Positions 14,288 through 57,265 of a stretch of 64,000 nucleotides of DNA are shown piece by piece (position 1 is the stretch's first letter; each line of letters begins with the position of its first letter). The DNA comes from Escherichia coli (GTDB taxonomy: Bacteria > Pseudomonadota > Gammaproteobacteria > Enterobacterales > Enterobacteriaceae), in NCBI RefSeq assembly GCF_044647545.1, contig NZ_CP172818.1; one strand, 5' to 3'. The position numbers were made by a program, and so were the translations under genes. The notes under the pieces are model-generated. The model was given only the letters and a program-made list of their open reading frames with translations, had not been told where the DNA came from and did not search any database.

Positions 14288-14518
14288 TCAGACCCCGTTG
14301 GCAAGCCGCGTGGTTAACTCATCCATAAAATATCGCGCAATGGCGGGCATCCCCTTTCGCCCGGCAAATAAAGCATACAACGGTCTGGGTATGCCGCTCC
14401 ACGGTGCAAACAGGCGCACCAGTTCACCGTTCGCAAGCCCCTGTTTACAGGCAAATTGAGGCAATAACGCCACGCCATTCAACCCAACCGGGACGCGAAC
14501 TCGCCGAGCAAAATGCAT
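14288..14518 (-). pseudogene. yqfE: C-terminal fragment of a LysR-family regulator
   Basis: 76-aa ORF resembling only the C-terminal tail of a LysR-type effector domain; no N-terminal HTH portion upstream. Confidence 0.6.
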
Positions 14519-14584
14519 TAGCGCAAATCCCTGATCTTATTACACAAGTATTTAATCATTATCTTTAATATAAAAGGAGTTATT

Positions 14585-14845
14585 ATGTCTATTAAGCAAA
14601 ATTTATTTGCCGCATTATTTCTTTGCACTCTCACAGGACACGCATTTGCCGCAACCGAGATACACAAACCGGACAATAATCTTGAACAGTTATCAAAAGT
14701 GAGCATGTCCACACACAATAGCAATCCAGCGGGCGTTGAAAGCCAAATCAAAAGAGAAAGCGGAAGAGTTACAAGCCAGCAATTACTACATCAGTTCTTT
14801 CTCCGTAAAAATTATATCCACGCCACTGTAATTTTCTATAAATAG
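14585..14845 (+). CDS. Hypothetical small exported protein (86 aa)
   Basis: Strong SD (aaggag) 7 nt upstream of ATG; N-terminal signal-peptide-like segment MSIKQNLFAALFLCTLTGHAFAA. Confidence 0.45.
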   Translation: MSIKQNLFAALFLCTLTGHAFAATEIHKPDNNLEQLSKVSMSTHNSNPAGVESQIKRESGRVTSQQLLHQFFLRKNYIHATVIFYK

Positions 14846-15528
14846 CCCCTCTGTTTAACGGAAGCATGGAATTATTCCATGCTCCTCTGCCAAAATGAAA
14901 TAAAAAATGAAAAAAGCTAATCTTACAGGTACGTTGGTTTGCTTTGTCGCATGCCTTATTTTTTTGTCGTCCGGTGATATTTTTCGTGAAAAGCCAATCG
15001 CTCTAATATGGTTCCTTCGACAAAACATACTCTTTTTTACGGGAACTCTTGCGTGGTGTCTGATGACGCTGACGATGTGTTTATCGTTGCGTTCATCATG
15101 GCTTAACAAAGTGCTGGGCGGTCTGGATAAAGTATGGCGAATCACATAAGTGGGCAGGAATATGCGCCATAGCGTTTGCTTTCGCCCACTGGCTGGATGA
15201 AAAATTACCCCAGTTATTCGTCGCCTTTGGCTGGCTTACTCACCCTGGTAAAATCGTTGATATTAACCTGACGCCAGTACAAGAAAATTGGCTTCATGCG
15301 GGACTGTTAGCGGGTGAATGCGCAATGTTTATTATTATAGCGATGGTTTGCGTATCTCTTAGCAAAAGAGTTCCCTATCATTTATTTCATCTTGTTCACC
15401 GTTTGTTCCCCGTCTTTTATCTGGCAATTGCCTTTCATGTGTTTACTGCTTTGTTTAAATCATACTGGTGGAACTCCTGCTGCGTATTTATTAATTTTAA
15501 TTACTATTCCGGGCGTCTTTGCGGCTTT

Positions 15529-15537
15529 CATTTCGCT
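15529..15537. repeat. Left copy of 9-bp target-site duplication (catttcgct) flanking IS1
   Basis: Identical 9-mer directly abuts both IS1 ends. Confidence 0.85.
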
Positions 15538-16307
15538 GGTAATGACTCCAACTTACTGATAGTGTTTTATGTTCAGATAATGCCCGATGACTTTGTCATG
15601 CAGCTCCACCGATTTTGAGAACGACAGTGACTTCCGTCCCAGCCTTGCCAGATGTTGTCTCAGATTCAGGTTATGTCGCTCAATGCGCTGAGTGTAACGC
15701 TTGCTGATTACGTGCAGCTTTCCCTTCAGGCGGGATTCATACAGCGGCCAGCCATCCGTCATCCATACCACGACCTCAAAGGCCGACAGCAGGCTCAGAA
15801 GACGCTCCAGTGTGGCCAGAGTGCGTTCACCGAAGACGTGCCACAACCGTCCTCCGTATCCTGTCATACGCGTAAAACAGCCAGCGCTGACGTGATTTAG
15901 CACCGACGTAGCCCCACTGTTCGTCCATTTCAGCGCAGACAATCACATCACTGCCCGGCTGTATGCGCGAGGTTACCGACTGCGGCCTGAGTTTTTTAAT
16001 AAAGTGACGTAAAATCGTGTTGAGGCCAACGCCCATAATGCGGGCGGTCGCCCGGCATCCAACACCATTCATGGCCATATCAATGATTTTCTGGTGTGTA
16101 CCGGGTTGAGAAGCGGTGTAAGTGAACTGCAGTTGCCATGTTTTACGGCAGTGAGAGCAGAGATAGCGCTGATGTCCGGCAGTACTTTTACCGTTACGCA
16201 CCACGCCTTCAGTAGCTGAGCAGGAGGGACAACTGATGGAGATGGAAGCCACGGGAGCACCTCAAAAACACCATCATACACTAAATCAGTAAGTTGGCAC
16301 CATTACC
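15538..16307 (-). mobile_element. IS1-family insertion sequence (770 bp), divergent isoform
   Basis: Terminal inverted repeats ggtaatgactccaacttactgat / atcagtaagttggcaccattacc; InsA and InsB homologous ORFs on minus strand; flanked by 9-bp direct repeat. Confidence 0.92.
15553..16252 (-). pseudogene. insAB: IS1 insA-insB region; insA fused in-frame to insB' but insB then frameshifted (defective transposase)
   Basis: ORF 15827-16252 = [13 protein letters not shown]...[16 protein letters not shown]...[13 protein letters not shown]; 4-nt insertion at the A6C slippery site (cgtcactttattaaaaaactc) puts insA in the insB frame; a further indel (~2 nt) shifts frame so the rest of InsB is ORF 15553-15942. 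Confidence 0.8.
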
Positions 16308-16316
16308 CATTTCGCT
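16308..16316. repeat. Right copy of 9-bp target-site duplication (catttcgct) flanking IS1
   Basis: Identical to 15529-15537. Confidence 0.85.
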
Positions 16317-17082
16317 GCTGAAATTCAAACGGTAGTAAAAACAAGCATCAGGCTACCATTAAAAACATTGTTAACCATCCAGGACAAATTACCGAAGTCA
16401 CCCTGGAACTGGAACATGCCATCGACTATTCTCCGGGGCAGTTTGCATTCTTAACGTTCGCACACAGTAAAGAATCTCACCCTTTTACTATCGCTTCATA
16501 CACCAAAGAGAAGAACACGTTGCGCTTTGCCATCAAAAATTTAGGGGATTATACCTCTACCCTTGCATCCTCGATAAAAATCGGCCAGTCCGCCTTCGTT
16601 GAAGGGCCATGGGGAAAGTTTGATTTAGACTCTCCCTTGCTCCCACCAGGTCTGGATAGCAGGAGGCATCGGCATTACCCCCTTTATCGCCCAGCTTGAG
16701 TATCGTAAACATCATGGCGCGTCCTCTGTTCCTGTGGATCTCTGGTATTACGTCAGCCGAAGCGAGGATGCCTGGTATGTTGATAAACTGACCTCACTTT
16801 GTGCCCAGGCCAGGGTCACACTGCATCTGCTTGATGCGCATAAAGGTGAGCGCCTACAGGCGCACTATCTTACTGATAAAATAGCAAATAAAGGTGACAC
16901 CCATTTCTGGTTTTGCGGCCCACAGAGTTTTGCCAAAGCGCTCAGCAAAGGGTTATATGAAAATGGGATTGCCAGCCAAAACTTCCATTACGACCGTTTT
17001 TGTATGCGTTAAATGCTCTGTACCCAACGCAAAATTGTGTCATAGTGCAGGAAAAAGCATTTACCAGGAGCAGACAACAGCA

Positions 17083-17976: not shown

Positions 17977-18179
17977 TCCATCAAATAATGCCTGATAGCA
18001 CATATCAGGCGTTATCCTCACTTCTTTTTGTATTCCTTGAATCACATCACAAAATAGACAAATCTCAGGCGGCAAAAAACGACGTCTGAATGCATTTTTT
18101 TTGCTGGCGACAAACCCACGTAAAAAGCTCACCGTAAGCGCAAATACCCTCATTTTGATTGCGTTTTACGGAGCAAATA

Positions 18180-20323
18180 ATGTCTAACGTGCAGGAGTGG
18201 CAACAGCTTGCCAACAAGGAATTGAGCCGTCGGGAGAAAACTGTCGACTCGCTGGTTCAGCAAACCGCGGAAGGGATCGCCATCAAGCCGCTGTATACCG
18301 AAGCCGATCTCGATAATCTGGAGGTGACAGGTACCCTTCCTGGTTTGCCCCCTACGTTCGTGGCCCGCGTGCCACTATGTATACCGCCCAACCGTGGACC
18401 ATCCGTCAGTATGCTGGTTTTTCAACAGCAAAAGAGTCCAACGCTTTTTATCGCCGTAACCTGGCCGCCGGGCAAAAAGGTCTTTCCGTTGCGTTTGACC
18501 TTGCCACCCACCGAGGCTACGACTCCGATAACCCGCGCGTGGCGGGCGACGTCGGCAAAGCGGGCGTTGCTATCGACACCGTGGAAGATATGAAAGTCCT
18601 GTTCGACCAGATCCCGCTGGATAAAATGTCGGTTTCGATGACCATGAATGGCGCAGTACTACCAGTACTGGCGTTTTATATTGTCGCCGCAGAAGAGCAA
18701 GGTGTTACACCCGATAAACTGACCGGCACCATTCAAAACGATATCCTCAAAGAGTATCTTTGCCGCAACACCTATATTTACCCGCCAAAACCGTCAATGC
18801 GTATTATCGCAGACATCATCGCCTGGTGTTCCGGCAACATGCCGCGATTTAATACCATCAGTATCAGCGGTTACCATATGGGTGAAGCGGGTGCCAACTG
18901 CGTGCAGCAGGTAGCATTTACGCTCGCTGATGGGATTGAGTACATCAAAGCAGCAATCTCCGCCGGGCTGAAAATTGATGACTTCGCTCCTCGCCTGTCG
19001 TTCTTCTTCGGCATTGGCATGGATCTGTTTATGAACGTCGCCATGTTGCGTGCGGCACGTTATTTATGGAGCGAAGCGGTCAGTGGATTTGGCGCACAGG
19101 ATCCGAAATCACTGGCGCTGCGTACCCACTGCCAGACCTCAGGCTGGAGCCTGACTGAACAGGATCCGTATAACAACGTTATACGCACCACCATTGAAGC
19201 ACTGGCTGCAACGCTGGGCGGTACTCAGTCACTGCATACCAACGCCTTTGATGAAGCGCTTGGTTTGCCTACCGATTTCTCAGCACGCATTGCCCGCAAT
19301 ACCCAGATCATCATTCAGGAAGAATCAGAACTCTGCCGCACCGTCGATCCACTGGCCGGATCCTATTACGTTGAATCGCTGACCGATCAAATCGTCAAAC
19401 AAGCCAGAGCCATTATCCAACAGATCGACGAAGCCGGTGGCATGGCGAAAGCGATCGAAGCAGGTCTGCCAAAACGAATGATCGAAGAGGCCTCAGCGCG
19501 CGAACAGTCGTTGATCGACCAGGGCAAGCGTGTCATCGTTGGTGTCAACAAGTACAAACTGGATCACGAAGACGAAACCGATGTACTTGAGATCGACAAC
19601 GTGATGGTGCGTAACGAGCAAATTGCTTCGCTGGAACGCATTCGCGCCACCCGTGATGATGCCGCCGTAACCGCCGCGTTGAACGCCCTGACTCACGCCG
19701 CACAGCATAACGAAAACCTGCTGGCTGCCGCTGTTAATGCCGCTCGCGTTCGCGCAACGCTTGGTGAAATTTCCGATGCACTGGAAGCGGCATTTGACCG
19801 TTATCTGGTGCCAAGCCAGTGTGTTACCGGCGTGATTGCGCAAAGCTATCATCAGTCTGAGAAATCGGCCACCGAGTTCGATGCCATTGTTGCGCAAACG
19901 GAGCAGTTCCTTGCCGACAATGGTCGTCGCCCGCGCATTCTGATCGCCAAAATGGGCCAGGATGGGCACGATCGCGGCGCGAAAGTGATCGCCAGCGCCT
20001 ATTCCGATCTCGGTTTCGACGTAGATTTAAGCCCGATGTTCTCTACACCTGAAGAGATCGCCCGCCTGGCAGTAGAAAACGACGTTCACGTAGTGGGCGC
20101 ATCTTCACTGGCTGCCGGTCATAAAACGCTGATCCCGGAACTGGTCGAAGCGCTGAAAAAATGGGGACGCGAAGATATCTGCGTGGTCGCGGGTGGCGTC
20201 ATTCCGCCGCAGGATTACGCCTTCCTGCAGGAGCGCGGCGTGGCGGCGATTTATGGTCCAGGTACGCCTATGCTCGACAGCGTGCGCGACGTACTGAATC
20301 TGATAAGCCAGCATCATGATTAA
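18180..20323 (+). pseudogene. scpA: Methylmalonyl-CoA mutase (sleeping beauty mutase) with a -1 frameshift after codon ~57
   Basis: N-terminus MSNVQEWQQLANKELSRREK...TGTLPGLPP in frame 0 (ORF 18159-18593), then conserved [30 protein letters not shown]... continues in frame 2 (ORF to 20323); shift occurs in the C5 run at 18348-18352. Confidence 0.8.
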
Positions 20324-27137: not shown

Positions 27138-27269
27138 TCAATATTCCTTTTCAACTGACTCAAAATGGAGAAATACACTCCGCCGCCTTATGACGGGCAG
27201 TCTGACAAGGGTAAACAATAAAGCATAATTTTGCCAAATAGATCACAGATTTCTCATCTGTATCCTCTG

Positions 27270-27300
27270 GCGAAAAAAAGACCCGCAGAGCGGGCCTTGA
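27270..27300 (-). terminator. Rho-independent terminator downstream of fbaA
   Basis: Minus-strand hairpin ggcccgc-tctg-cgggtc followed by tttttttc. Confidence 0.65.
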
Positions 27301-36485: not shown

Positions 36486-36779
36486 AAATTATCCTTATTT
36501 TATTTTTAGGGTACCGTCCGGCGGTAAAAATAAAATACTCGTGCGGTTTAATGAAAGCAATTGAGAAGAAAAACCCCATAAACCAAAATAATAAAACCTT
36601 AAATAACAACAATATGAAATTGATATTTTTAAAGTCAACTTTGTATTTGTTATATTTATCACAAAATCAACATTTTGTTTGTTATTGTATTTGTGATGCA
36701 TATCTCTATTTATTTATTGAATGTTCGAAAACATACTTTTCTAATGCAATGTTTTTTCGCTATACCCCTTTATAGATTC

Positions 36780-37321
36780 TGAATTCTCACCTGTCGGCTA
36801 TTTTCTCCTTACCTCATGTGACATATTCCCCATTTTACTCAAAAAAAATTTATATAAAAGCACCTTTTTCATAAACCTTATTTCCCCCAAAAAAATCTTT
36901 TTTTATCCCTTTGGGCGTTTTTCCTGTTTTTTCCCCCTTTTTTTCTTTTTTACCCCTTAAAAAAAGGAACGCGGCATTTTTTTGCCCTACGAAAAAATCG
37001 TAAAATTTGCCGAGCCGGGTCTGGGTTTTAAGATCCCGTTTTTGAAAAGGGGAAAAAAATTTCCACCCGTAATAAGGCGGGGGTTTATCAGGGATTAAAG
37101 CCTTCAACCCCCCACCAGAAACCGGCAAAAAAAAAAATTGAGTGAGCTTCCACATAAAAAATTCAGAAAAAGGCGCGGTTTATACCACCTACAACACCAT
37201 TGAAGCATTAAAAGATCGTCTGATTGTCCGTCAGTTGCCAACTCAACTGGAGAATTCCCATATACATACAACTACAAAACAACAAACATAAACAAAACCC
37301 ACAAAAAAAAATATCTCTAAA
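36780..37321. other. Compositionally aberrant homopolymer-rich non-coding segment (origin unresolved; possible assembly/synthetic artefact)
   Basis: Dense runs of A7-11, T5-9, C5-6, G5; no credible ORF, RBS or RNA fold; cmtB-tktA spacer is ~885 bp here versus a few hundred bp as I recall for K-12. Confidence 0.5.
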
Positions 37322-37350
37322 GTAATAAAAAGGGCCGCTTTCGCGGCCCT
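37322..37350 (-). terminator. Rho-independent terminator immediately downstream of tktA
   Basis: Minus-strand hairpin agggccgc-gaaa-gcggccct followed by ttttattac. Confidence 0.75.
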
Positions 37351-37371
37351 TCTCACAAAGCATCTTACCGA

Positions 37372-41425: not shown

Positions 41426-41528
41426 AAGGGTTGGATTTGCGAAACACAAGTATGCGCTAATTATCGCCTTAAATGAAAAGAGGGCCGCATCAAGGACTAA
41501 CACAGGTCCCATACCACCAAACTCCAAC

Positions 41529-43542
<2,014 letters not shown>

Positions 43543-56075: not shown

Positions 56076-57265
56076 TCATTAATGCCGCATGCGGCGTTAA
56101 TCACTTCTATAATAAATATAATTATATATTAAACATATATTAAAATAACACAACAATAATATTCTTCAATCAAAAATAAACAAAAACACACGATGAACCG
56201 AACAACATGCAAAAACAAATCACATCTCAAAAATTTATAACACTCTTCCCCTCCAACAACGAAAACAAAGAAAAATACGTTAAAAAACAAAAAATATCGA
56301 AACAGAAAAACGAAAAAAAAATAAAGTAATGAATCACCACACGAGAACAAGAAAAAAACAACAAAATATATACTAATAACACAGTAGGAAAGGAATAAGA
56401 ATCAACAAAGAAATTTTTACCATCATCAAACGATAACAAACAACCGAAGAGGGAGATAGTTGCCACACCGACACAGAACATCTCTCCACATCACAACAAT
56501 AACAGGTAGCGGAGCACCCCCAATAACCAAAACACAGACCCATACTTGACAACCAGAACAAAAAAACACAACGACAAAAACCAAACAACGAAGAATGAAA
56601 AATGATAAAGAAGAAATTGAATAATTAACACTATCACCCCTACATCAAACTAGAAAAGAAATCGTTGTTAGATATGCGCGGTGTGGTGGTCCTGTGATGC
56701 GCGAACTAGGCGTGACGCCTTTTCTGTCGCCGTCATGCTTGCTCTGGTTGTATGCGTAGTCTGATAAGACGCTCCAAACCACAAAAGCACAGCATCCCAT
56801 TCAGACCAAAGAAGGTTATGATTGCCGGCATTTTCTACCGCTGTCAACGTCTCATCTTGTTATAACTGGATTACTGATACCGCCCTCAAACGTGTTAATT
56901 GTTTTTCCCTACACTGCGCGTTTCTAGCACGCTATTAGCGGGATATGCAAGGGACTAAGAGTCGCGGTAAAAACCGGCATATCAAACGCGGCTACCCGCT
57001 TCAGAAAAAGCAACCTCCAGGCCTAAAGCGTTCGACCTACCAAGTTCTCGTCAAGGCGGCATCGGCGGCATTTTACGCAACGAAGGCCGATCTTCACAAT
57101 TATGATTACCGGGAATAAAATCGCGATTTACCCAAACGATCGAACGGTTACAAATAATTCGCACCGCAAACCAACAATCCAAAAACTAGGATTCAAACCC
57201 ACCAAATAAAAAAAAAAAAAAAAAGGAAAAACAAAAAAAAAAACAACAAAAAAAAAAAAAAGAAA
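56076..57265. other. ~1.2 kb non-coding segment of aberrant composition: A/C-rich block (~56100-56640), ORF-free block with REP-like fragment (~56640-57180), A-rich tail (57181-57265)
   Basis: Strong strand-asymmetric A+C bias with very little G/T in the first block; runs A17, A11, A14 abutting yggM stop; only low-complexity ORFs in the track; hemW-yggM spacer is <100 bp in K-12 as I recall. Confidence 0.5.

Follow-up and report, generated by a model that had tools for sequence, protein, structure and literature searches.

The IS1 element beside argP in this Escherichia coli sequence is probably an ordinary one. Judging from sequence comparison, we put at about 0.74 the probability that its two indels, a TATT insertion in front of the frameshift heptamer and the loss of a GC dinucleotide within insB', are errors made in the reconstruction of the record and not mutations of the bacterium. 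Beneath them there would be the common 768-bp isoform with its normal A6C programmed -1 frameshift, placed in an oxidoreductase gene by an insertion common to the ECONIH1-like lineage of E. coli. The features to which the argument refers are listed below, with positions in the window, i.e. the whole stretch of 64,000 nucleotides that was analysed.

15538..16307, minus strand: IS1 element, 770 bp, aligned with IS1A, IS1F and the ECONIH1, FDAARGOS_497 and E138 copies
16285..16307, minus strand: left inverted repeat (IRL), GGTAATGGTGCCAACTTACTGAT, from pattern search; same as in the ECONIH1 copy
15538..15560, plus strand: right inverted repeat (IRR), GGTAATGACTCCAACTTACTGAT, from pattern search; same as in the ECONIH1 copy
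16308..16316, no strand: target-site duplication AGCGAAATG on the IRL side, read directly; flanks alike in FUJ80154
15529..15537, no strand: target-site duplication AGCGAAATG on the IRR side, read directly from the sequence
15998..16001, minus strand: 4-nt insertion, TATT on the element strand, directly 5' of A6C, from the alignments
15991..15997, minus strand: AAAAAAC (A6C) heptamer, sequence intact, now read AAA AAA C in the insA frame
15840..15841, minus strand: junction of the 2-nt GC deletion, GTGGCGCACG to GTGGCACG, from the alignments
16049..16049, minus strand: synonymous substitution GCA to GCG (Ala), A>G, relative to the orthologous copy
15827..16252, minus strand: 141-aa ORF, InsA (zinc ribbon and HTH) fused to the first part of InsB', from the ORF list
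15553..15839, minus strand: rest of InsB' (HVFGERT...HYQ and stop), coded at +1 to the fused ORF
14539..17026, no strand: segment absent from K-12 that holds IS1 and the split oxidoreductase gene; 12 private differences, including 8 indels

In its ends and length the element conforms to the IS1 family, which is characterized by imperfect terminal inverted repeats of ~23 bp (GGTRATG...CCAACTTACTGAT) and an element length of ~768 bp. The 770 bp found here exceed the 768 bp of the common isoform by the balance of a gain of 4 nt and a loss of 2 nt, and both 23-bp repeats are present without a mismatch to the pattern (two matches against none expected). The same pattern search, run over the whole window, found no second IS1. 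Target duplications in this family are 8-9 bp long, and a 9-bp direct repeat, AGCGAAATG, was read at both ends; because it flanks the element, the latter is a bona fide product of transposition. The gene split by the insertion codes for a ferric-reductase-like / FAD-binding oxidoreductase and is located just upstream of argP.

The insertion could be placed exactly by alignment. The slippery region reads CACTT-TATT-AAAAAAC in the window as opposed to CACTT-AAAAAAC in IS1A, IS1F and the orthologous copy, the wild-type sequence at this site being CACTTAAAAAAC. All letters of the heptamer are unchanged and its reading phase alone is altered. The first-pass annotation had proposed that an insertion of 4 nt fuses insA with the insB frame, and the alignments bear this out. 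It had also named an intact A6C site, with the differences located elsewhere, as the observation that would speak against this proposal; the heptamer is indeed intact, yet the insertion immediately 5' of it is real in the given sequence. A second indel had been anticipated with the correct size of 2 nt, but at 15920-15945, which is ~80-100 nt away from its actual position at 15840/15841, where the wild type has GTGGCGCACG. A templated or duplication origin of TATT was considered and rejected, as inspection revealed no simple tandem duplication in the flanking sequence.

The GC deletion sits 12 nt upstream of a TGA at 15827-15829 and shifts the frame, so that this stop is read. The resulting ORF begins with a GTG at 16252, ends in ...VVARLR and scores 146.7 bits with the NCBIfam model NF033558. 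Its Pfam domains are PF03811 (residues 1-36), PF12759 (43-84) and PF03400, or DDE_Tnp_IS1 (103-139). Completeness of the DDE domain was judged by Pfam coverage: the ORF comprises profile positions 1-37 of 131 only, while positions 31-131 of 131 are found in the InsB' remainder, the translation of which on its own is not expected. Both protein signatures of the family, the InsA zinc ribbon/HTH and the InsB' DDE_Tnp_IS1 domain, are present, with PF03400 divided over two frames. The arrangement in which insA occupies the 0 frame and insB' the -1 frame, connected by -1 frameshifting at A6C, exists in the orthologous copies. It is missing from the window copy because the heptamer is out of phase, insA continues into insB', and the second shift breaks insB'. 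The uninterrupted InsAB' of ~232 aa which characterizes single-ORF IS1 is not found either, the reading frame being closed after 141 aa. That the fused ORF stops soon and leaves the remainder of InsB in another frame had been recognized in the first reading, and so had its almost certain consequence, a transposition defect unless complemented in trans: as written, the element is unable to make a transposase and could move only with transposase from another IS1 copy.

The identical insertion, with the same 9-bp duplication, was found in 32 complete E. coli genomes, among them ECONIH1, whose alignment with the window spans both IS1 junctions and shows no differences at them. We take the lineage that shares this argP-proximal insertion to be ST648. 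Compared with the orthologous copy of ECONIH1, the window element differs in one mismatch and six gap columns, and the same result was obtained with FDAARGOS_497; ungapped identity is 93.1% to IS1A of K-12 and 95.4% to IS1F. Those orthologues that were inspected (ECONIH1, FDAARGOS_497 and FUJ80154) are 768 bp long and annotated as programmed-frameshift IS1. In ECONIH1, FDAARGOS_497, MS6198 and others, PGAP lists the argP-proximal element as 'IS1 family transposase' with programmed frameshift (WP_223216367.1). Site, orientation, 9-bp duplication and inverted repeats are shared between these elements and the window copy. The latter departs from them in carrying TATT before A6C and lacking GC at 15840/15841, and consequently in having neither an intact InsAB' nor the normal insA stop and -1 frameshift arrangement.

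Five of these genomes have an IS1A-family annotation for the copy at the same insertion site. In FUJ80154 (NZ_AP024687.1 977571-979937), where the 9-bp duplication is as in the window, the copy is a mosaic, its ends matching the common isoform and its interior matching IS1A. The mosaic has the appearance of a gene conversion between IS1 copies, so that the natural variation seen at the locus would be gene conversion and not indels.

Searches for the TATT variant were negative in every collection. E. coli genomes and PLSDB were searched with a 68-nt probe that has the insertion in its middle: 5,426 complete E. coli genomes yielded 69,518 IS1 places, none of them with the variant (best full-length match 95.6%), and there is no exact match among PLSDB plasmids. 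A scan for exact 31-mers in GTDB species representatives gave nothing, and neither did a scan of JGI metagenomes. The exact 141-aa product is known from one NCBI contig only, 4,499,902 bp long, in a collection of 15 billion proteins. The variant is thus private to a single record and absent from orthologous copies of the same insertion, as expected of an artefact. The suggestion made in the first-pass annotation, that a fused transposase intermediate in an unusual evolutionary state had been found, does not hold: the lesions are private, the inspected orthologues are normal frameshift IS1 elements, and fused IS1 is already known.

To place these indels in the context of the whole window, the window and ECONIH1 were both mapped onto K-12 MG1655 and their differences were sorted by homology to K-12. 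Small differences number 105. Ninety of them belong to the 3.3 kb of aligned sequence without a counterpart in K-12 (Fisher p ~1e-98), and 10 are located within 14 nt of the edges of K-12 homology blocks (1007/1028, 14538/17027, 27268-27297, 36575/37371, 40399/40426, 41439/41564 and 56100/57263). The remaining five, a deletion in a C6 run of scpA and four SNPs, lie in 59.1 kb of K-12-homologous interior. Divergence from ECONIH1 in the rest of the window is roughly 1e-4 per bp. Indel-rich private differences therefore track presence or absence in a K-12-like backbone, which is the second mark expected of an artefact, and the other ECONIH1 segments of the region that have no homologue in K-12 have all been lost, have decayed or have given way to A-rich junk.

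Several of these places can be described individually. At 36833-37311 a prohibitin-family gene is decayed and rich in homopolymers; a search of natural genomes with the window segment 36400-37700 yielded at most 93.2% identity, in ECONIH1-like genomes. Between speB and speA, a 90-nt filler ending in 35 A (41476-41565) replaces an 899-nt segment with a hypothetical gene. A TRAP-transporter segment of 3.2 kb has been replaced at 56109-57265 by 1,157 nt of low-complexity, A-rich sequence. The C6 deletion in scpA (methylmalonyl-CoA mutase), 1 nt at 18348, is the only indel within the K-12-homologous interior, and divides the gene into two ORFs, 18159-18593 and 18377-20323.

Around IS1 the boundary is sharp. 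Two stretches upstream of the locus, 13,470 nt and 1,007 nt in length, are 100.000% identical between window and ECONIH1, and all 12 differences of the insert at 14539-17026, including the eight indels, lie within 14750-16628. At the rate of K-12-homologous sequence, 0.45 differences would be expected there (Poisson P ~1e-13). The element itself does not stand out from its surroundings: the patch outside IS1 has nine differences in 1,718 nt, which predicts ~4 per 770 nt, and IS1 shows three. Both halves of the oxidoreductase gene carry private frameshifts relative to ECONIH1. A DUF1471 gene in the same segment (14585-14845) has a compensating pair of frameshifts, +A at 14750 and -G at 14805, by which ~18 codons are scrambled; the gene is intact in relatives. 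Close by, at 14480/14481, a 1,346-bp segment of ECONIH1 is missing, extending from the 3' part of a LysR regulator gene into an FMN-dependent NADH-azoreductase gene, most of which is included. The window is joined there exactly as K-12 is at its yqfE pseudogene.

Two explanations of the pattern could be discarded. Errors caused by AT-rich, low-coverage DNA do not fit, since the affected ECONIH1 segments have 43-52% GC. Neutral decay of pseudogenes would have to account for 12 differences in 2.5 kb beside five in the 59 kb of interior with its many synonymous sites, and was rejected because synonymous sites of the flanking genes would have changed too.

The dependence of fidelity to ECONIH1 on K-12 homology is a direct observation, and no natural process sorts DNA by its presence in K-12. 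The contig from which the window derives, at 4,499,902 bp, is near the 4.64 Mb of K-12 and below the 4.9-5.3 Mb of related genomes. Together, the error pattern and the chromosome size point to a rebuild on a K-12-like backbone. In such a process the sequence of the strain would have been rebuilt on that backbone and its strain-specific insertions, the argP-proximal IS1 among them, would have been rendered poorly.

The alternative with some standing is that both indels are real and private to this strain. The element would then be a decaying, non-autonomous IS1, in which the frames were fused by the 4-nt insertion and the catalytic domain was inactivated, afterwards or beforehand, by the 2-nt deletion. 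We consider this unlikely, if far from absurd. The deposited sequence does read so and the inverted repeats are intact; consensus errors more typically take other forms than a non-homopolymer insertion of 4 nt; and a dead IS1 in an already broken gene could carry true lesions. On the other side, a divergence of ~1e-4 per bp elsewhere leaves no room for three changes in 770 bp or for 12 in 2.5 kb, and neighbouring genes which are intact in relatives also bear private frameshifts, the +A / -G pair of the DUF1471 gene being one case. Nor did any second record with the lesions appear in the E. coli genomes, GTDB, JGI or PLSDB.

That natural IS1 copies with altered A-runs and relics with fused, then truncated ORFs exist also speaks for real lesions, and the comparison with them is instructive. 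Rare copies have A7, A8 or A9 instead of A6 (E138, 162.2, SCU-308 and SCU-176 among complete E. coli genomes). Two A7 copies are single-ORF elements, the 'IS1-like element IS1X4 family transposase' of E138 (WP_101416779.1) and the 'IS1A family' copy of strain 162.2 (WP_001743396.1). As in the window copy, insA and insB' are joined in them without ribosomal frameshifting. They have gained one A in the homopolymer and retain an uninterrupted 232-aa InsAB' (...RHLKKLRPQ...), whereas in the window copy the insertion is of 4 nt and not of the homopolymer type, and the ORF ends at 141 aa.

Relic elements in which small indels leave ORFs of InsA plus partial InsB' are represented by strain 720632 and by EZK34609.1 / KDA62833.1, the latter being 162-aa 'insA N-terminal domain protein' entries of the same fused and truncated class. 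The relic IS1 of 720632 (NZ_CP025842.1 2397329-2398795) adjoins a truncated gene for an MFS transporter of the YbfB/YjiJ family, and eight other genomes give the same match to a 67-nt probe. It has an internal stop and a 1-nt deletion at the same GCGC from which the window copy has lost 2 nt. This is a natural indel precedent for the site, and counts against an error in the record. Many substitutions have accumulated in the 720632 relic, while the window copy is otherwise pristine and confined to one record.

An engineered counterpart is also available. In the frameshift-free element 'IS1.fs' (A6C changed to GA2GA3C) transposition is reported to rise ~1000-fold (PMC12428005). Hard-wired InsAB' and loss of InsA are common to IS1.fs and the window copy; IS1.fs keeps an intact DDE domain and is hyperactive, whereas the window copy is truncated and catalytically dead. 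With natural A7 copies and engineered fusions both known, fused IS1 is not a new state.

Real lesions would also fit into known IS1 biology, since action of InsAB' in trans (PMC12903888) and strong inhibition by InsA (PMC12428005) are both documented. A 141-aa protein would be made from the IS1 promoter in IRL, with the IR-binding zinc ribbon and HTH and without most of the DDE domain. Its predicted role would be that of an InsA-like repressor or competitor, by extension from the described function of InsA (PMC12428005). Intact inverted repeats would permit mobilisation by InsAB' from other copies, given its activity in trans (PMC12903888). The element would be one more dead IS1, adding little to engineered fusions and natural A7 variants.

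A more elaborate possibility is a functional, re-wired IS1, in which the A6C -1 site was hard-fused and a +1 recoding site, CUU-CGG-UGA, was made by the GC deletion. Slippage of Leu-tRNA from CUU to UUC, at the rare CGG beside the stop, would then yield a low level of full-length transposase. Sites of this kind are known, CUU-UGA in prfB and CUU-AGG-C in Ty1 both resembling CUU-CGG-UGA. CTT CGG TGA is indeed located between the GC deletion and the stop, and the C-terminal part of InsB' is +1 to the fused ORF; what this provides is frame arithmetic only. The sequence arises accidentally from the loss of 2 nt, lies in a patch of evident sequence errors, and is a singleton with no sign of spread in the window, E. 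coli genomes, GTDB, JGI or PLSDB. We regard this as very improbable; if true, it would be a natural swap of a -1 for a +1 recoding site within one IS.

A distinct natural isoform or lineage with fused transposase, intact elsewhere, is just as hard to credit and essentially refuted: natural single-ORF copies do exist and are annotated as such, but they are A7 variants and not TATT insertions, a single mismatch separates the window copy from the common isoform when indels are set aside, and the TATT copy had no exact match in any of the four collections, the window itself holding just one IS1.

Reconstruction error thus remains the explanation that we favour for both indels, and its consequences extend beyond IS1. 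Features in 14539-17026, about 36576-37370, 41440-41563 and 56101-57262 should not be interpreted as biology without read support. The window as a whole is a caution that the trustworthiness of a sequence need not be uniform along its length.
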